A stretch of DNA of 64,000 nucleotides, taken from the IMG/VR virus record IMGVR_UViG_3300045988_081755, one strand, 5' to 3'. This document shows positions 43,721 to 57,435 of this stretch, in pieces. A program made the position numbers and the translations under genes. Under the pieces are notes generated by a model. It searched no databases and was not told where the DNA came from. It saw nothing but the letters and a program-made list of their open reading frames with translations. Origin of the DNA: a virus. The stretch's first letter is position 1, and each line of letters begins with the position of its first letter.

Positions 43721-45148
43721 TTATTCCTTCTTTTGAGTCTCCTTACCACGGCTTTCCAATTCTCCCTTCACTTTCATTATAGAGTAAAGCAACTCCGCTC
43801 TTTGAGACTTCTTTATGGCTTCAAAGTTCTTGTTTAAATCATTCACAAGACCCTTCTCCATCTTCTTGAGGTTTTCCGTAGGAATGTTCTTAATGTTTGA
43901 CCACTTCTCATCAACACCCTTGCGAACCTTTTCTGACAGGTATTTCTTCAGATTGACCTTTCCGCTGTTAGGGACGTCCTCAAACTTGACACGGGTGTAA
44001 GACTCTTCGGTTTCACCTTGTTTTGATTCAGACTTTGAATCTTTAGAATTCCATTTATTTGCAAATTTATCCGCAGCCTTTGCAGCTTCATTTGGGGAGG
44101 AAAACAGTTTACTTTTCAAATCCTCTGCCTCTTTATGAAATTCTTCTGCTGCTTCAAAAGAAACTTTTGACGCTGAAACTGACGCTGAATATTCATACTT
44201 CTTGTCCTTCAGATTAGGAACAGCCTGGACAGCCATTGACTCTACCACACCATCTTCACCATATTTTTTCGTATCACTAAAAGAATTCCCCTCCCACCCA
44301 GAAAGACTCACTCGTTCTTTTTGGGGTTCGGACTTCGATTCTTCCTTTGATTTGCGATTTTCTTGAATGAGCTTGTTTATTTCACTCCATGTATCCGCAA
44401 TTTCTTTTGTAAGACGTTTTTCTTCATCAGACATTGGGGATTCAATATCAGGATTGGGGAACTTCTTTTTCTTTTCGGAAATGAGTCTTTCAACTTTTTC
44501 AGAAAGTTCTTTCCGTCTCTGAAGATTATCTACTTCTTCTTTCAACTTTTTTTTAATAGCAAAATCTGAAAATCCACCGATATGTTCAGCCAATGAACCA
44601 TTAAATTTTCTTCCAGTAACTTTGTTAATCCAAACTCCAACTTTTTCCTTTTTAAAAGGACCATATCCACCCCCTGAAGCTTCGGCTCCAATAGGAGCTT
44701 CCTTTAGAACTCTATCTGCCTTTTCATAGACAGATTCTTTTTGTTCAGATTCCTTCTTCTGGGCTTCGTTTATCTTCTTACTGGTTTCCTTGGCTTCCTC
44801 TGCGTTTTTCTTCTCTTCATTCGCCTTAACACCAGCATTAATCTTTTCAGCCTGTTTCTTCGCAGCCTCGAGTTTTTGTTTCTTCTCCGAAAGTTTCATC
44901 ACTTCCGCAGCCGGAAGATTCAGTTTCCCCTCGTTGATAGCAGCGATAACCTTGTTTACAGCCTCGAGCTCCTTTGCAGGGTCAGTTTCCTTCTTCTCAG
45001 TCTTTTCGCCATCGTCGGACTGTTTCTCAGCACCATACTTCTGTCCGACACGATGTTTACGACGGTTCTCAGCGGTGTCTGAATAAACACCCGAACGAGA
45101 TTTCATTATTGTTCTTTCTGTCAATGTAACCATATTCTTTTCAACCAT
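43721..45148 (-). CDS. Lys/Glu-rich 475-aa protein carrying an N-terminal GVYxDTxENRRxxRVGxxY motif
   Basis: Long charged helical ORF. The motif KSRSGVYSDTAENRRKHRVGQKYG is shared with the upstream gene. Confidence 0.5.
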   Translation of the reverse strand: MVEKNMVTLTERTIMKSRSGVYSDTAENRRKHRVGQKYGAEKQSDDGEKTEKKETDPAKELEAVNKVIAAINEGKLNLPAAEVMKLSEKKQKLEAAKKQAEKINAGVKANEEKKNAEEAKETSKKINEAQKKESEQKESVYEKADRVLKEAPIGAEASGGGYGPFKKEKVGVWINKVTGRKFNGSLAEHIGGFSDFAIKKKLKEEVDNLQRRKELSEKVERLISEKKKKFPNPDIESPMSDEEKRLTKEIADTWSEINKLIQENRKSKEESKSEPQKERVSLSGWEGNSFSDTKKYGEDGVVESMAVQAVPNLKDKKYEYSASVSASKVSFEAAEEFHKEAEDLKSKLFSSPNEAAKAADKFANKWNSKDSKSESKQGETEESYTRVKFEDVPNSGKVNLKKYLSEKVRKGVDEKWSNIKNIPTENLKKMEKGLVNDLNKNFEAIKKSQRAELLYSIMKVKGELESRGKETQKKE

Positions 45149-46515: not shown

Positions 46516-46626
46516 TAAAAAGGGGGGTTTATACGCTCAATAAAAGGGGGTCTAAAGCGCATTTAAGGGGGTCTGTACGCTAATAAAGGGGGGTTTATAC
46601 GCTCGAAATGCATACGTCTGTACGCT
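46516..46626 (+). repeat. iteron array (4 full plus 1 partial direct repeats, about 21-24 bp period); putative replication origin
   Basis: Units of the form AAA(A)GGGGG(G)TyTrwAmGCkC. The G-runs start at 46522, 46546, 46567 and 46588. Units 1 and 4 are identical. The array ends about 100 bp upstream of the Rep gene. Confidence 0.65.
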
Positions 46627-46732: not shown

Positions 46733-47479
46733 ATGAGAAAAGATGTAATACAATGTTCGAAAAGAGTCAGCGAAGATACTCCTGACTACTCATGTTGGCA
46801 AATGCGCTGTCTGTGCTTAGTTGCCGACCAGCTCCAGCCTTTATTAAAGGAAGATATTGATTGGGCAAATACAAAGTTTGAAAACCTCGAAAAGTACGGT
46901 ATCTTTAACGATGACCATGAAGTTGAAATCACGATGAAACTTTCCGACATCGACAAGAACCGAAACGGAATTCGGGTTCTCAATGAGATTAAAAAGATGT
47001 TCGATATTCCCATTACATGGGATTGGATGAAAAACGGTAAAGCCACACGAACTGTCTTTTACTTTATCCATCGAATGGAATGGAATGAAGATAACCTGTT
47101 TTCTATTTATCTGTCCCATTTCAGCGTTCGATGGATTCTTGAGTTCGGGAAGCGACAGGGGTTCTTATCGTTTGACAAACCGTCAATGATGATGCTCTCT
47201 TCTTCCTACTCTATGCGCCTCTTTTTGATGTTGAGTCAATGGTACTCTAAGAAAGAGTTTTCTCTCGGTGTAGAGGAACTTGAGAGACGTCTGTGTTGTC
47301 CTAAATACACCCCCAAAGATTTACGTGTACAGGTGCTTGAACCTATAAGAAGAGAGTTAAATAGCAAGGACTGCCGTCTTTCTTTTGAATATAAGTTCGT
47401 GTCAAACGACAGAAAGAAAGGAGTTGGTCGAAAACGTTTTGATACTGTGGTGTTCACTATAATTGACAAAGAGAAATAA
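46733..47479 (+). CDS. Rep_3/RepB-like replication initiator
   Basis: The winged-helix initiator signature SSSYSMRLFLMLSQWYSKKEFSLGVEELERRL...LRVQVLEPIRRELN is typical of iteron-binding Rep proteins. Iterons lie upstream. Confidence 0.55.
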   Translation: MRKDVIQCSKRVSEDTPDYSCWQMRCLCLVADQLQPLLKEDIDWANTKFENLEKYGIFNDDHEVEITMKLSDIDKNRNGIRVLNEIKKMFDIPITWDWMKNGKATRTVFYFIHRMEWNEDNLFSIYLSHFSVRWILEFGKRQGFLSFDKPSMMMLSSSYSMRLFLMLSQWYSKKEFSLGVEELERRLCCPKYTPKDLRVQVLEPIRRELNSKDCRLSFEYKFVSNDRKKGVGRKRFDTVVFTIIDKEK

Positions 47480-48298: not shown

Positions 48299-48603
48299 TG
48301 AAGAAACTTGTATTCCTATTCTTGACGTTGCTGATTGTAGGCTGTGGGACGACTCGAAAGACCGTGTTCTTTGAGCGAGTAACCCCACAGCCTCTTTCGG
48401 TGATTGACAGCCTGAACACCGTTCACGGCTTGAGCGTTCCTACGAATTTAAACTCGTGGGGCAAAACGTACTTCATCGGGAATGATTCCGTGATGACAAC
48501 TGTTTACGTCTTGACTGAAAGGAAGAAAGACACTTTATTTATCTTTTCTGTTACTGAAACAGCCGGAAAAGAAAATGTAATCTTTAAATTTAGGAAGGAA
48601 TGA
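48298..48603 (+). CDS. lipoprotein (101 aa)
   Basis: MKKLVFLFLTLLIVGCGTTRK is a signal peptide with a lipobox. The tracked ORF 47998..48603 is a GTG-started upstream extension of this frame. Confidence 0.55.
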   Translation: MKKLVFLFLTLLIVGCGTTRKTVFFERVTPQPLSVIDSLNTVHGLSVPTNLNSWGKTYFIGNDSVMTTVYVLTERKKDTLFIFSVTETAGKENVIFKFRKE

Positions 48604-49181
48604 TTACAAGAGGACTTGGATTTATTGAAAGTGGCGTCAATCCGAATGACGCCATTTATGCAGCTCCAAAGATTGAACTCCCGAAGAGCTATGAACTGAA
48701 AGAGCAACTCCGTGTCTATGACCAAGGAAACAAAGGAAGCTGCGTTTCCTGTACCGTTGCGGAGATGTTCAACTTCTATTGTAAATCGAAAGGTCGTGAA
48801 TCGGGCATCGGTTTCGAATACATTTACGACAACCGTTCTGACAAGACTATTGACGGAATGATGCCTCGTGAGGCTTTCGAAATTCTTAAACGGGAATCTC
48901 GTATTGATTTATTCGCTCGTGTGACGTCTCTTGACGCTCTCAAAAAGAGCGTTCTTGTCAATGGCGCAGCACTTATAGCGATGAATGTATTTTCGTATAA
49001 TGACGACTTTTGGGATGGCGATGAATTCATGGGTGGTCATGCTGTGGCTGTCGTTGGTTATGATGAAACAGGCTTAATCATTAAGAACTCCTGGGGTACA
49101 GGGTTCGGTCGTGGTGGCTATGTTACTCTCCCATACGGAAAGTTTAACAAAGTACGAGAAGCCTGGACTCTGCTGGGTTAA
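48600..49181 (+). CDS. papain-family (C1) cysteine peptidase, no pro-region or signal peptide
   Basis: QGNKGSCVSC carries the oxyanion Gln and the catalytic Cys. GGHAVAVVGYDETGLIIKNSWGTGFGRGGY carries the His and the Asn-Ser-Trp. Confidence 0.8.
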   Translation: MITRGLGFIESGVNPNDAIYAAPKIELPKSYELKEQLRVYDQGNKGSCVSCTVAEMFNFYCKSKGRESGIGFEYIYDNRSDKTIDGMMPREAFEILKRESRIDLFARVTSLDALKKSVLVNGAALIAMNVFSYNDDFWDGDEFMGGHAVAVVGYDETGLIIKNSWGTGFGRGGYVTLPYGKFNKVREAWTLLG

Positions 49182-49202: not shown

Positions 49203-49238
49203 GAGCACTTCTTTCAGGAGTGCTCTTTGTTTTTCTTC
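49203..49238 (+). terminator. rho-independent terminator of the rep-to-peptidase operon
   Basis: Stem GAGCACT / AGTGCTC followed by TTTGTTTTTCTTC. Confidence 0.55.
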
Positions 49239-49250
49239 GAAAATCAAGAA

Positions 49251-49568
49251 GGAGTCTCCCTGTCGCAAGCTGGCGTTCCCTACGCAATTTCCGGTACAAC
49301 TATCAACATCACTGGATATGGTTCAGGCAAAGGAACTGTTAGCGTAACAGCTCCAGCAGGGGGTTCTTGGAGTATTGACTTCGCAAGCAATGCTTTCAGC
49401 CTTACTGCTTCGCCATCATCGGGTACTGGTCCGAACAGTTCCGTCACTATCAATGCTATCAATGATTCTGGTCAAACAGGTATTCACAGAATTAATATCT
49501 ATCTTAAAAACGGCTCAACGGTTGTTGATACAGCAACCGTTCAAGTTCGTATAACTTCTCAAGGATGA
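49251..49568 (+). other. silent alternative 3' cassette A (no start codon, no promoter)
   Basis: Begins GVSLSQAGVP at crossover site A, immediately after a terminator. The tracked start at 49227 is a TTG inside the terminator U-tract. The ~96-aa domain is unrelated to cassettes B and C. Confidence 0.5.
49253..49270 (+). repeat. putative inversion crossover site A (AGTCTCCCTGTCGCAAGC)
   Basis: 18/18 identical to site C and 17/18 to the reverse complement of site B, in the same codon phase. Confidence 0.55.
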
Positions 49569-49611: not shown

Positions 49612-50700
49612 TTATGGTGTGATAGTTTGGTTTTCAGCTTTAAGAGTGAAAGTTGAAAAGTACCTAGAGTCGAATATATTTTGGCCACCCCGCTGAATGC
49701 GTACTGTAATAGTGTCACCAGCTTTGGCTTGAACAGTTTCCATCCTGCTTCCTGGTTTACAAACTGTCAATCCGTTTGTATTATTCCACATAATTGAGGC
49801 ATTTTCATACCCAGAACCCATAGAATAATAATCATTTGGACCATACAATGGAATACCCGTTGAATTAAATAGATAAGCGGTTGCTCCTGTATAATTACGG
49901 AACTTAATTGTTAGGGTAAATCGGGAAACGACGGCTGCTTGCAACAGGGAGACTGCTTGGGTCTTACCACTACCAGTCTGCGTATAGGAAACAGAACCGC
50001 CTCTCGAACCGCTTTGATTGGACGCAGCCGTAATAGATGTTCCATCCGTGTTCTTGCTGAACCCTGTTCCGCTAATCGTAGCCGTCCATGCAACATTTTC
50101 CTGGGTCGATGTTTCGACTCCGTTTATAACTTTCTTTCGGTAGGAAATTACGGTAACGGATTTCGTTCCACCACCAGCGACGAAACTGAGCGATGTCGGA
50201 GTCACGGAGAAGTAATAGTTCCAAGTTACTACTCCCGCAGCCTGACTCAATGAAATAGAAGCTGTTTTCCCACTTGTCCCCTGTGTATAGGAAACAGAAC
50301 CGCTTCTCGAACCGCTTTGATTGGACGCAGCCGTAATAGATGTTCCATCCGTGTTCTTGCTGAACCCTGTTCCGCTAATCGTAGCCGTCCATGCAACATT
50401 TTCCTGGGTCGATGTTTCGACTCCGTTTATAACTTTCTTTCGGTAGGAAATTACGGTAACGGATTTCGTTCCACCACCAGCGACGAAACTGAGCGATGTC
50501 GGAGTCACGGAGAAGTAATAGTTCCAAGTTACTACTCCCGCAGCCTGACTTGCGCCAACAGTACGTGTCATCCCGCCACCAGCGACTGAAAGGCTCGTAC
50601 TGCGTGTGGATTCTGTCTGGTTAGCAGACGCTGCGACAGTCACAGTTGTGCTACCACTTCCTCCGGAGTCCGGAGTTGCTGTAATAAAATCTTTCTTCAT
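49612..50700 (-). CDS. BACON-like repeat protein with exchangeable C-terminal domain (currently fused to cassette B)
   Basis: Starts MKKDFITATPDSGGSGSTT, a second-half BACON-like segment. Two near-identical 101-aa modules follow, then the junction QAVSLLQAAVV and a 108-aa C-terminal domain. A TAAATTTG box lies upstream. Confidence 0.6.
   Translation of the reverse strand: MKKDFITATPDSGGSGSTTVTVAASANQTESTRSTSLSVAGGGMTRTVGASQAAGVVTWNYYFSVTPTSLSFVAGGGTKSVTVISYRKKVINGVETSTQENVAWTATISGTGFSKNTDGTSITAASNQSGSRSGSVSYTQGTSGKTASISLSQAAGVVTWNYYFSVTPTSLSFVAGGGTKSVTVISYRKKVINGVETSTQENVAWTATISGTGFSKNTDGTSITAASNQSGSRGGSVSYTQTGSGKTQAVSLLQAAVVSRFTLTIKFRNYTGATAYLFNSTGIPLYGPNDYYSMGSGYENASIMWNNTNGLTVCKPGSRMETVQAKAGDTITVRIQRGGQNIFDSRYFSTFTLKAENQTITP
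49928..49960 (-). repeat. putative inversion crossover site B (inside the expressed gene)
   Basis: The reverse complement CCAAGCAGTCTCCCTGTTGCAAGCAGCCGTCGT matches site C at 32 of 33 positions. Confidence 0.55.
49982..50550 (-). repeat. tandem 303-bp duplication (two 266-bp copies, 1 mismatch)
   Basis: 49982-50247 matches 50285-50550 at an offset of exactly 303 bp (101 codons). The only difference is C50001 versus T50304. Confidence 0.85.
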
Positions 50701-50739
50701 AATTCTTAAAATTAGTTATAACTAAATGAAATTTCACCG

Positions 50740-50747
50740 CAAATTTA
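50740..50747 (-). promoter_or_regulatory. -7 promoter element TAAATTTG for the BACON-repeat gene
   Basis: Exact TAnnTTTG, 40 nt upstream of ATG 50700. It lies inside the segment bounded by sites B and C. Confidence 0.4.
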
Positions 50748-50752
50748 GCGGT

Positions 50753-51208
50753 TTATATCTCGAAATCAAAATCCTTTGTCGTTATCCTACAAAACGAGCC
50801 TTCCGGAGAAAGGCATATCACCTCTGTTTGGTCGTCTAAATACGATACAGATAGGACGGGGAGATAAGTGTATCCATCAATATAGAAAATGCCTGCAGGC
50901 TCCCCGTTAAGACCGTCAAACGTGGGAACCTGTATCCTGGGGGATACGACCTGTTTACCGCCACCGAAAACTCCGAAGTCCCTAACAGTCTGTTTCACCG
51001 TGACGAGTACCTGTTCAAGCTCGTGAATATACTTGCGTTTCATGTTCAAGTAGGAATTAAGAATCATGCTGACCTCAATCTTCCCTTCAATTCCGTACAG
51101 TTTCCTCGTTTCATTGCGGAGAACCTGAAGTTCTCCTGCGGAGAGTTCTTCAAAATCCTTTTCAAGAATGTCGAGCAACTGTTTGTTTCGCTTTTCTTCT
51201 TTCTTCAT
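50753..51208 (-). CDS. hypothetical protein (inside the B-C segment)
   Basis: 151-aa ORF with no recombinase motifs. Confidence 0.45.
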   Translation of the reverse strand: MKKEEKRNKQLLDILEKDFEELSAGELQVLRNETRKLYGIEGKIEVSMILNSYLNMKRKYIHELEQVLVTVKQTVRDFGVFGGGKQVVSPRIQVPTFDGLNGEPAGIFYIDGYTYLPVLSVSYLDDQTEVICLSPEGSFCRITTKDFDFEI

Positions 51209-51293
51209 GTCTTCATTCTTTTATATGTAAAACGTTCTTTTTCCGACAATCAATTGATTTTACGCCAGAATCTTCCTTATTCATTTAAAATAG

Positions 51294-51689
51294 AGCCAAG
51301 CAGTCTCCCTGTCGCAAGCAGCCGTCGTAATAACCTATAAATATAGAATTGCACCTGAATTGATTACAGTTTCTAATTCGCAACATGGTTCTGTGACGAA
51401 AACTGTTCTGATGTATAAAGAGCGTTATGTGAATGGGGTTAAAGATGGTGAAGAGCAAATTGAATACTCTTTACTTGACCAAAATGGAAGTTATTCCCCT
51501 GTTCCTTCTACCACATACACAAATGTTTGGGGAGGAACTTGGACAATTGAAAAGACAGGGAATTCTTTAAGGGTAACGACAATTTCAGGAGGAAGCAATT
51601 CTTCTGGTGGAATCACTGGTGTGAAATTAATGCCTGGAACCAGTTATGCTGGGACAATAAATACCGATTTAAATTTGGGTCGTCCATAA
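51294..51689 (+). other. silent alternative 3' cassette C (no start codon)
   Basis: The frame opens right after TAG 51291-93 and reads SQAVSLSQAAVVITYKYRIAPE..., matching the junction in the expressed gene. The tracked ORF 51360 starts at an internal TTG. Confidence 0.5.
51296..51328 (+). repeat. putative inversion crossover site C
   Basis: CCAAGCAGTCTCCCTGTCGCAAGCAGCCGTCGT is inverted relative to site B. Confidence 0.55.
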
Positions 51690-51700
51690 TTTCAAATAAA

Positions 51701-51727
51701 AAGAGCGGAGTTTTCGGCTCCGCTCTT
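51701..51727. terminator. 10-bp-stem terminator (AAGAGCGGAG / CTCCGCTCTT)
   Basis: The minus strand has the U-tract TTTATTTG, serving gene 51777..52052. The hairpin also closes cassette C on the plus strand. Confidence 0.6.
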
Positions 51728-51776
51728 CCCTGTCGTCAAACAATAAATCAAAATATGAAAACACAACAAAGAGAAT

Positions 51777-52052
51777 TCATTTTCCTCTGATGATAGTAGT
51801 ATAACGGTCATAGATGGCATCCCAGTTCTTTTCGACAAGTTTGCATTTCTGTGTGAAAGACTTATCGTTGAAAGTGTTGATGTTTTGAAAGACTCCGGCT
51901 TTCAGTTCCGGATGCCACATCTTTAGAAAGATACCCTGTTCACTGATGAAGCCTATTTCCTCACCCTTGTAAACTAACTGTGCATATTCTGACGTGGGCA
52001 TTCCGGCTCCACCCTTTACCGTTACTCGATTTATTTCAATAGGTGCTATCAT
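51777..52052 (-). CDS. hypothetical protein
   Basis: 91-aa ORF followed by a strong terminator. Confidence 0.45.
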   Translation of the reverse strand: MIAPIEINRVTVKGGAGMPTSEYAQLVYKGEEIGFISEQGIFLKMWHPELKAGVFQNINTFNDKSFTQKCKLVEKNWDAIYDRYTTIIRGK

Positions 52053-52344
52053 GATTCCTTTTCTTTAAGTTGTGATTTGATTCGAAGATTGTAGTTATCC
52101 CATATCAATTGAGCGTGTTCCTTGACCCAGTTTACTGCATACCTGTGGTCTTGGGGTTCTTTTAGTCTCAAATAAACAGGTTTGGGGTACAGTACAGGCA
52201 CAGTGATGAATTTCCTGTAACGGACATGATTGATTCTCCTTTGTAGAAAATCTGTGAACTTCTTTGTTCACCGCAAGCACGCTGAAGTTTTGACGGCTTC
52301 CCACCTCTCTTTGATGTAAACTTTATCTTTGCCATAATCATTAA

Positions 52345-52713: not shown

Positions 52714-52759
52714 AGACTGCAAAGAAAATCCCGGAATTTCTTCCGGGAAATCTTTGAGA
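52714..52759 (-). terminator. 46-bp terminator module, copy 1 (TCCCGGAA-tttc-TTCCGGGA)
   Basis: 8-bp stem followed by TTTTCTTTGCAGTCT on the minus strand. Identical to 57390-57435. Confidence 0.6.
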
Positions 52760-53308
52760 GGATTGATTTTTATGTGAAATCGAACTCGGCTACACAAACA
52801 TATTCTCCCTGATACTGAGGGTCTCCAAGATATAATCGAATGTACTGAAGAGCGTGTGAAGCGGGAGTGAATTGCTTTCCGGCAGACATTCTAAAATAAT
52901 GTGCAGTAAAGCCAGGAATTCCAGGGTTCTCGGGGTCACTTTGAACTTTGTCATAATATGACTTGGTTCCAGCTCCAGGAATATCTTTATACAAAGTTTC
53001 CATGTAAACGCCATTATTAAATGGCTCCTCCCATATATTTTCGATACTGTCTGAAAGCAATAACGCTCCTCTTGTTACCCAATAAGTATCGGACATTTCA
53101 GACACGGAAGGAATCTGTGCATTCATTTTAACTGAAAGATATGAAACTTCTCTTTCGTAACCATTGTCGTTTATTTCTGACTTTACAGAAAAACCCGTTG
53201 CGTTGAACGAAAAAGTAACATTTCCATTCCATTTATCAGCAATTGAAGTTAAACCCACAACGGGCATGAGCGGAATTCCGTTTTGGTCAACGGTTACAAG
53301 GCGAGATA

Positions 53309-53316
53309 CCCCCCCC
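53309..53316 (-). repeat. homopolymer G8 (C8 on plus strand) within the coding sequence
   Basis: Counted directly. It encodes the AGGG Gly run. Lengths of 7 or 10 restore the frame. Confidence 0.9.
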
Positions 53317-53392
53317 AGCGGAGAAGTTCAAAGTTGTGGAGCGAGCAGAAAAGGTTGGATTTGGGTCAGCAGATACGCTTACTTGAGCCGTA

Positions 53393-53402
53393 CCCCCCCC
53401 CC
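53393..53402 (-). repeat. homopolymer G10 (C10 on plus strand) within the coding sequence
   Basis: Counted directly. It encodes the SGGG Gly run. Lengths of 9 or 12 restore the frame. Confidence 0.9.
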
Positions 53403-53563
53403 GAATCGGGAGTGATTGTAAGAAAATCTTTTTTCATGATTCTTTAATTTTAAATTCAACGAAATTATTTATGCTATTGACGTCAATTATAGCCGATTTA
53501 AGAGGTTAAAAGTATGCCCCGAACAAATTATCCGGAGCACACCTTTGATTATCGCTTAGAGCC

Positions 53564-57333: not shown

Positions 57334-57368
57334 GACTTTACTGTTTTTTTTTTAATTGATTTACACAA

Positions 57369-57389: not shown

Positions 57390-57435
57390 AGACTGCAAAG
57401 AAAATCCCGGAATTTCTTCCGGGAAATCTTTGAGA
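57390..57435 (-). terminator. 46-bp terminator module, copy 2
   Basis: Identical to 52714-52759. It shows that the tracked ORF 57330..57554 is spurious. Confidence 0.6.

Follow-up and report, generated by a model that had tools for sequence, protein, structure and literature searches.

A gene interrupted by two poly-G runs, located on the minus strand of IMG/VR virus record IMGVR_UViG_3300045988_081755 (64,000 nucleotides (nt); this whole stretch is referred to here as the window), is probably a phage contingency locus, in which both runs are real hypermutable simple-sequence repeats that act as two serial switches on one and the same gene. The gene, termed here the poly-G gene, encodes a protein with an N-terminal BACON domain. 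It belongs to an uncultured phage of the human gut with a genome of ~109 kb, which is myovirus-like in carrying tail sheath, major head protein, portal, large terminase and DnaB helicase genes. Over 3.3 kb, the window has 100% identity with a European Nucleotide Archive (ENA) metagenome scaffold of 109,310 bp, L067 (ERZ28628869, sample SAMN06164722), from which it was probably taken. A first-pass annotation, made by a model from the letters of the window, had proposed a slippage-prone contingency locus, with homopolymer sequencing error as the alternative, and our analysis supports the contingency locus over an error or a dead gene through the conserved positions of the tracts, their range of 5-11 G among relatives, an in-frame G9/G10 allele found in the relative L031, and purifying selection on the encoded protein.

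The minus-strand reading and translation confirmed the start codon (ATG at 53437), the G10 tract (tract 1, 53393-53402), the G8 tract (tract 2, 53309-53316) and the premature stop (53366-68) as they had been annotated at first pass. The gene start reads MKKDFLTITPDS, and in an all-frame translation the frame entered from the ATG (MKKDFLTITPDSGGGYGSSKRIC) runs into the stop codon 53368-53366. The G10 tract begins at nt 36 of the gene and the G8 tract at nt 122, the two being 76 nt apart, and they divide the gene into segment A (from the start codon to tract 1), segment B (between the tracts) and segment C (past tract 2), each of which is open in a frame of its own (Table 1). Segment C, beginning VSRLVTVDQNGIPLMPVVGLTS, can be read without a break in frame +2; within it lies the 165-amino acid (aa) open reading frame (ORF) 52770-53267, which is the one that gene callers report. 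Wrong frames reach a stop 4-8 codons past tract 1. When tract 1 is set to G9 or G12 and tract 2 to G7 or G10, a single ORF of 221-223 aa results (221 aa when one G is taken off each tract), which bears out the frame correction put forward in the first-pass annotation.

No G/C run in the 64-kb window other than these two tracts exceeds 6; G6 runs lie at 1947-1952, 46522-46527 and 46588-46593. Extrapolation of the run-length distribution of the window gave an expectation of 0.23 runs of at least 8 and 0.008 runs of at least 10; both tracts are far beyond chance. GGG accounts for only 16% of the Gly codons of the window, and GGGGGG occurs at none of the 99 Gly-Gly pairs in 39 long ORFs. The remaining long homopolymers are a T8 (44547-44554) and an A10 (57344-57353), and there is no sign of general homopolymer miscalling, because the T8 lies within an intact 475-aa ORF and the A10 is intergenic.

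The frame-corrected protein matched the Pfam BACON family (PF13004) over residues 3-51, corresponding to profile positions 9-60 of 61, with an E-value of 2e-9 and a score of 37.7 bits, above the gathering threshold of 25 bits. Since this match spans both tracts, the three-frame join restores a real domain. In addition, database homologues of 209-223 aa bear precomputed PF13004 hits. The C-terminal domain alone gave a confident, beta-rich AlphaFold model with a predicted local distance difference test score (pLDDT) of 88 and a predicted template modelling score (pTM) of 0.86; a search of the PDB with this model returned no match at E <=0.001, and template modelling (TM) scores were <=0.40. The full-length model was poor (pLDDT 55), and its search against the PDB and BFVD yielded generic beta-sandwich TEAD matches at TM ~0.27 and otherwise the same BACON family alone, the true BFVD matches being only a "BACON domain-containing protein [Myoviridae sp. 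ct3pM2]" and a truncated orthologue. PHROGs held no family for the poly-G gene or its nine neighbours. The C-terminal domain defines a narrow family: an exhaustive representative search of 1.84 billion proteins yielded 15 representatives, none of them informative. The Pfam entry describes BACON as a putative binding domain, and an adhesion role has been predicted for BACON-type domains of gut phages (PMC8008677); by analogy, the product of the poly-G gene may serve in adhesion. The first-pass description of the gene as "tip-type", with a "tip domain", found no support, as beyond BACON there was no sequence or structural match to a receptor-binding or tail protein. Location does not argue for a tip role either: the recognisable tail genes (sheath and a tail-lysin protein) lie at ~18.6-25.9 kb and the portal at 41-43 kb, and the poly-G gene at 52.8-53.4 kb.

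Relatives of the locus were drawn from IMG/VR and from metagenome contigs, i.e., from human-gut and other metagenome assemblies, and amounted to ~70 loci or contigs. A search of GenBank phages (50,697 records) gave no DNA match to the region by blastn and no match to the corrected protein by tblastn, and a search of one genome per bacterial or archaeal species gave no relative of the locus, hence no prophage or host clue; the BACON domain by itself would suggest a Bacteroidota host. Related genomes carry 2-5 paralogous tract-bearing genes each, with poly-G at the identical two positions followed by differing C-terminal domains, and all paralogues have the N-terminal motif MKKDF[LI]T..P[DE][SN] in common. 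Only the MKKDFITATPDS class of paralogues, to which gene 49612-50700 of the window belongs, never carries the tracts. In this tract-less paralogue the same Gly positions use mixed codons (GGA GGA AGT GGT; GGT GGC GGG), exactly as read at first pass. The conclusion then drawn, that the homopolymers of the poly-G gene are derived, does not hold: the tracts occur in most paralogue classes, with the MKKDFITATPDS class as the exception, and thus characterise the family instead of having arisen privately in the window gene. Of the 146 G/C runs of at least 7 across 534 kb of related DNA, 133 were on the coding strand of these genes, no more than 180 nt from the gene start; the remaining 13 were mostly the same tracts behind truncated or mutated starts.

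The positions of the tracts are thus shared by most classes of the family, and their lengths vary. A comparison of lengths in related genomes had been suggested as a check at first pass, and among 62 tract-bearing genes on ~55 contigs both tract 1 (mode 10) and tract 2 (mode 9) ranged over 5-11 G, with one of the very in-frame combinations predicted, G9/G10, found in L031. The variation is also seen within the window lineage, among copies in which the inter-tract segment is identical to that of the window. The window and its probable source scaffold L067 have G10/G8; L068, from a different run, SRR5156033, and another assembler, has G8/G8 with 0 mismatches in 758 nt; L069 has G10/G10 with 3 mismatches in 1085 nt; L033 has G10/G9; and L031 (G9/G10) is fully in frame, with a 222-aa product (P0002). 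Farther copies of the window lineage have 11/10, 6/6 and 11/6, bringing the lengths recorded in this lineage to 6, 8, 9, 10 or 11 G for tract 1 and 6, 8, 9 or 10 G for tract 2. Family-wide, among 46 pairs whose flanks diverged by 1-3%, 44 had one or both tracts of different length. Where the flanks were identical, in two pairs, the tract lengths agreed as well, and the length calls are therefore reproducible. Tract lengths thus change more quickly than substitutions build up, and one-base stutter cannot account for a range of 5-11 G over many projects and assemblers.

Five contigs terminated exactly at a tract (L004/L025 at the start, L005 at the start, L022 at the end, L035 at the start and L057 at the end), and L035 opens with an artefactual C7G10 palindrome. 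Mixed tract lengths within a sample would produce contig breaks at the tracts. These ends suggest that assemblers break there, and that public data probably contain the family in an under-assembled and mis-annotated form.

Both open and interrupted alleles coexist in nature. Relative to the open frame, shifts of 0, +1 and +2 were found in 16, 23 and 23 genes at tract 1 and in 18, 19 and 17 genes at tract 2, and 5 of the 54 genes with two tracts were fully in frame, with 6 expected if frames were random. In the protein database, full-length products formed 54 clusters of 218-223 aa with a BACON match, and fragments formed 50 clusters of ~165 aa (from an internal Met start) and 9 clusters of 209-212 aa; by member sequences, the full-length share was ~9.5%, which is near 1/9. 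The intact alleles vary by whole Gly residues, TTQ being preceded by DNGG, DNGGG or DNGGGG and VSR by SAGG or SAGGG, and there are alleles that are interrupted yet in frame (GEG, GGEG, GGRG and GER). Both tracts are interrupted in L045, which looks like a locked-ON allele by its sequence.

Some further variants were observed in the family. The database homologue P0023, which reads MKKDFITVSPDTGGGVSRAITV..., has lost, in frame, exactly the stretch between tract 1 and tract 2, and with it most of the BACON domain. In L001-type paralogues (e.g., L015:2305), which have GAT AAT before the poly-G, the letters A-ATG-GGG give a +1-frame ATG right before tract 1, and the proteins of 209-212 aa that begin MGGGTTQ... 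are called from that ATG (P0013, P0018, P0024, P0039) and make up ~35% of the database members. The +1 state at tract 1 might thus not be fully OFF in this class; the window gene, which has GAT TCG before the poly-G, is without an ATG before tract 1. Lesions outside the tracts were seen in L026:6721 (start codon ATG to ATA), L060:3034 (a one-base deletion in an A-run of the start region) and L008:5999 (C5 vs C4 in segment A), and these copies may be locked OFF or decaying.

Selection was assessed separately for each segment in the frame that the BACON reading requires. Segment C has 177-178 codons in 10 orthologues, with no stop and no indel, and the ratio of nonsynonymous to synonymous substitution rates (dN/dS) was ~0.07-0.3 in most pairs with dS of at least 0.3, dS between the window and several others being saturated. 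In segment B (25-26 codons), the ratio of nonsynonymous to synonymous differences (pN/pS) was 0.36 and 0.51 in the BACON frame, and the same DNA read in the two wrong frames gave 0.8-1.9 (0.82 and 1.86 beside the 0.36); these values come from equal-length classes. Segment A (codons 1-11) gave a pN/pS of 0.135. By these ratios, and with the caveat that the pairwise comparisons are not independent of one another, selection is acting on the whole protein and not just on the 165-aa ORF.

Together, these data show conserved tract positions, hypervariable tract lengths, the coexistence of ON and OFF alleles in nature and purifying selection on the full frame. These are features by which contingency loci are recognised, i.e., a frame-shifting tract of at least ~7 within an ORF, fast length variation, natural ON and OFF alleles, non-random upkeep of the repeat against codon usage and across homologues, and purifying selection on the full frame. 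In the mechanism that we propose, slipped-strand mispairing at phage DNA replication would add or remove G's, as the known behaviour of such tracts leads one to expect. One frame combination in nine would let the ribosome, having started at the ATG at 53437, translate the BACON domain and then the C-terminal domain (~221 aa), and the other eight would lead to a stop after ~20-50 codons; the window copy, at +1 on both tracts, would be OFF. The phage population would accordingly be a mixture with a minority expressing the accessory protein, and the same switching would take place independently at each of the 2-5 tract-bearing paralogues of a genome. The slippage itself, its reversibility in the population, a lack of functional protein from broken alleles and an adaptive benefit are all parts of the mechanism that we infer.

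Several points weigh against this reading. The frame states are statistically indistinguishable from random, and ON genotypes show no visible enrichment among the consensus sequences; random states fit a fast neutral switch and leaky slippage of RNA polymerase or ribosome equally well. Heterogeneity within a population and reversibility are presumed, the contig breaks and the difference between L068 and the window counting as no more than hints. The contigs are probably for the most part Illumina-derived, to judge by SPAdes-style contig names and their Human Microbiome Project (HMP) and Logan sources, and contigs of different databases may share samples, which means that the counts are not fully independent. 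Finally, with neither a PHROGs family nor a structural relative for the protein, the selective agent cannot be specified.

The main rival is leaky recoding, in which RNA polymerase or the ribosome slips on the G runs, every genotype makes some full-length protein and the tracts set a low level of expression. It would explain the random consensus frames and the conserved protein equally well: frame states are uniform and in-frame consensus genotypes are not enriched, yet the full frame is under purifying selection. Moreover, tracts cluster at 9-10 G regardless of frame, and a GGG-GGG run permits perfect re-pairing of the Gly-tRNA in any frame. Nevertheless, we regard leaky recoding as unlikely, for the shift has no fixed direction or size, in-frame alleles exist whose tracts are down to G5-G6 or interrupted, and most genotypes would need two independent slips and would thus give a very low yield; slippage of bacterial RNA polymerase, in turn, is well documented on long A/T runs and much less so on G. 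Nor is the locus a programmed frameshift site of the classical kind, since its offset is not fixed and 0, +1 and +2 are all common; a fixed shift conserved in homologues, the mark of programmed recoding, was not found, and many alleles are fully in frame. Leaky recoding is compatible with DNA-level switching, and both could operate. The same compatibility applies to the idea that the poly-G is kept mainly as microhomology for swapping N-terminal cassettes or C-terminal domains between paralogues, with frameshifts as a tolerated side effect. Such a use of the tracts as joints would fit the fall in identity between the window lineage and the L009/L011/L040 paralogues, from 97% (segment A) and 82-91% (segment B) to ~25% just past tract 2, and it would fit the precise tract-to-tract deletion in P0023. 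This, however, is one clear mosaic boundary only, the breaks at tract 1 being unconvincing since segment A is 35 nt long and conserved everywhere; neither 9-10 G nor a homopolymer of Gly codons is needed for recombination, and the rapid length change among near-identical genomes is left unexplained. Recombination is no substitute for a contingency locus, and as the main reason for the tracts we consider it improbable.

A sequencing or assembly miscall, in which the true phage has G9/G7 and an intact gene and each tract was over-called by one, would account for both tracts being exactly +1, and L068, with identical flanks, calls tract 1 as G8 and not G10, i.e., length calls can disagree between assemblies. 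Against a miscall, the G8 of L068 is likewise out of frame, scaffold L067 is identical to the window with G10/G8 included, and no other homopolymer breaks a gene in the window. Lengths of 5-11 G in ~55 contigs from many projects and assemblers go far beyond a stutter of +/-1, pairs with identical flanks reproduce their lengths, and in-frame alleles with varied Gly counts, together with interrupted ones, represent real evolutionary length change. A miscall is in our view very improbable, and even if it were true of the window copy, the locus would remain hypervariable. We give the least credence, next to none, to a decaying pseudogene family, in which the genes would be dead and the frameshifts their first lesions. 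About 90% of the copies are indeed out of frame in the assembled consensus, and the few further lesions (the ATG-to-ATA start of L026, the A-run deletion of L060 and the C5 vs C4 of L008) could be taken as continued decay. The selection tests already contradict it, all three segments being under purifying selection in the BACON frame; stops and indels outside the tracts are absent from 10 orthologues despite a saturated dS between the window and others, the tracts are upheld against codon bias in several paralogue classes, and 54 intact clusters exist.

The comparison of paralogues led to a further, more tentative proposal that goes beyond the contingency locus of the single gene. The drop in identity to the L009/L011/L040 paralogues occurs right after tract 2 (53309-53316), where ~25% is the random level, and forms a mosaic boundary shared by the window, L031, L032 and L033; the tracts may also act as recombination joints, as this pattern would suggest. 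We discarded apparent mosaic breaks at tract 1, along with those that involve L042, since they arise from offset parsing and from segment A being short and conserved. It is possible, on balance somewhat doubtful, that the conserved upstream region and the BACON N-terminus of ~45 codons with its two tracts form a portable switch cassette, which heads 2-5 paralogues, recombines at or near the tracts with unrelated C-terminal domains, and flips independently in each paralogue alongside an inversion shufflon at the single tract-less paralogue. If this were true, each burst would produce virions, or infected cells, whose binding proteins differ in stochastic combinations, and the cassette would be, in a widespread group of phages of the human gut, the viral equivalent of the contingency-gene families of bacteria. 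An unrelated gene of the relatives (...AEFRRGG followed by MSKPFFDNFCDSPAFYANASPDVV...) also bears variable poly-G close to its 3' end, namely G8, G8 and G10 at L022:828, L023:1725 and L024:491, respectively; the G10 in L024 breaks the frame of that gene, of which the window has no homologue.

The 60 nt located 5' of the ATG of the poly-G gene are 100% identical with the close relatives L031 and L033 and 63% identical with L009-type paralogues, and a sigma-70 scan gave no promoter match in the upstream region (53438-53505), for which a promoter of the Bacteroidota type would be a candidate. The terminator-like hairpin past the stop codon has an 8-bp stem with 5 GC pairs, followed by TTTTCTTT. 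A 46-nt element that contains the terminator (minus strand ...TCCCGGAAGAAATTCCGGGATTTTCTTTGCAGTC...) is present twice in the window, at 52714-52759 and 57390-57435, 4.7 kb apart. The Logan contig L068 joins across this 46-nt repeat, and is there either an assembly chimera or a deletion variant; its aberrant 3' end results from this join and is unrelated to the tracts.

Table 1. Coordinates of the poly-G gene, its parts and the tract-less paralogue in the window.
Feature	Position	Strand	Basis or remark
Tract-less BACON paralogue, MKKDFITATPDS class	49612..50700	-	varies by DNA inversion
Intrinsic-terminator-like hairpin then T-run, just past the stop codon	52729..52748	-	
Segment C, BACON end, ~165-aa beta-rich C-terminal domain and stop	52770..53308	-	
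Poly-G tract 2, G8 (in-frame lengths 7 or 10, thus +1)	53309..53316	-	
Segment B, BACON core (TAQVSVSADPNPTFSARSTTLNFSA), open in frame +1 only	53317..53392	-	
Poly-G tract 1, G10 (in-frame lengths 9 or 12, thus +1)	53393..53402	-	
Segment A, start codon and codons 1-11 (MKKDFLTITPDS), frame 0	53403..53437	-	minus-strand reading, translation
Upstream intergenic region, presumed promoter	53438..53505	-	identity with relatives; putative promoter function

The tract-less BACON paralogue is part of a second variable locus, whose existence next to the poly-G gene had been suspected at first pass and is borne out by the relatives. Inverted repeats of 37 nt (49928-49964 vs 51292-51328) are 95% complementary, with a third copy of the site at 49249-49276, and promoterless C-terminal cassettes are present at 49227-49568(+) and 51360-51689(+). 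With the flank 51690-52100 taken as the fixed reference, the segment 49930-51286 has the orientation of the window in L021, L009, L011 and L058, and is inverted in L033, L049, L040, L046 and L008. With both orientations represented among relatives, 49930-51286 is a real invertible, shufflon-like locus; a recombinase gene was not identified within the window. The tract-less paralogue also has a 287-nt tandem duplication (49961-50247/50264-50550, 97% identical, with a 303-nt period) that doubles an internal domain. On the plus strand, a Rep3-type replication initiator with WH1/WH2 domains (46733-47479) and a papain-family C1 peptidase (48600-49181) stand between the structural module and the BACON genes, with unannotated small genes nearby.

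Retroelements and inversions are known means by which gut phages vary their binding proteins. Switching by homopolymers on the phage side has been reported so far only for Campylobacter phages and, very recently, for T-even coliphages. If the switch at the poly-G gene is real, it would provide a natural system for studies of viral bet-hedging in the gut. It also has a practical side: thousands of database entries show the family as fragments of 165 aa or ~210 aa from gene callers, the tracts are places where contigs end, and pipelines that discard "frameshifted" genes will systematically miss the poly-G BACON family. A full-text literature search found no description of such poly-G switching in gut phages or in BACON-bearing phages.

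The closest known system is that of the Fletchervirus phages of Campylobacter, which reportedly carry hypermutable poly-G tracts whose length variation is said to give rise to phenotypically different subpopulations. The two systems are alike in that poly-G lies within genes on the coding strand and in that several tract-bearing genes occur per genome. They differ in that the likeness is one of mechanism and not of descent, there being no DNA or protein similarity among the 50,697 GenBank phage records; in that two serial tracts stand 76 nt apart here, in a small conserved N-terminal BACON module used by a whole paralogous family; and in that the window phage is an uncultured, myovirus-like phage of the human gut of ~109 kb. 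Poly-G tracts of Campylobacter phages are mentioned, as diversifying phage populations, in PMC12823448, which cites Sorensen et al. 2021 (Cell Rep 35:109214) for them. In the bacterium Campylobacter jejuni itself, cj1421, cj1422 and cj1426 have an N-terminal G9-G10, with ON and OFF one base apart, mixed populations, and lengths that differ between assembly and PCR (PMC8713573). Those genes are cellular, replicated by the host and usually furnished with one tract, whereas the window gene is viral and has two.

In the contingency loci described for phages T2 and T4, homopolymers within ORFs often gain or lose one base, with reversible inactivation that has been read as bet-hedging (Gomez, Barrick and Waters 2025, bioRxiv, PMC12633550). 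In the window gene, too, a homopolymer lies within a phage ORF, and one-base changes would likewise inactivate the gene. The T2/T4 loci are mostly A-runs of 6-9, spread through all gene classes at >100 sites, in frame in the reference and changing at ~1e-4 to 1e-3 per read (PMC12633550), whereas the runs of the window family are longer (to G10-G11), are nearly the sole long G/C runs, are confined to one gene family and are mostly out of frame in the consensus. With the G and C segments of phages Mu and P1 and the shufflons of plasmids the likeness lies in the stochastic C-terminal switching of a phage surface protein, and the tract-less gene 49612-50700, with its segment seen in both orientations, appears to work in just this way. 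Inversion in Mu and P1, however, swaps alternative C-termini by site-specific recombination, and the poly-G gene would be turned on and off by frame, with no alternative cassette. Diversity-generating retroelements have been described in gut Bacteroides phages, the 'Quimbyviridae' (Benler et al. 2021, PMC8008677), and homopolymer switching of the present kind is not described in that study. The retroelements, too, diversify accessory binding proteins of gut phages; they do it through a reverse transcriptase that rewrites codons of a C-type lectin fold, and nothing of this sort is present at the poly-G gene. What is special to the locus of the window, compared with all of these systems, is the presence of two tracts in one conserved N-terminal domain, their use by a whole family, the near-exclusive placement of long G runs there, and a coexisting inversion switch.

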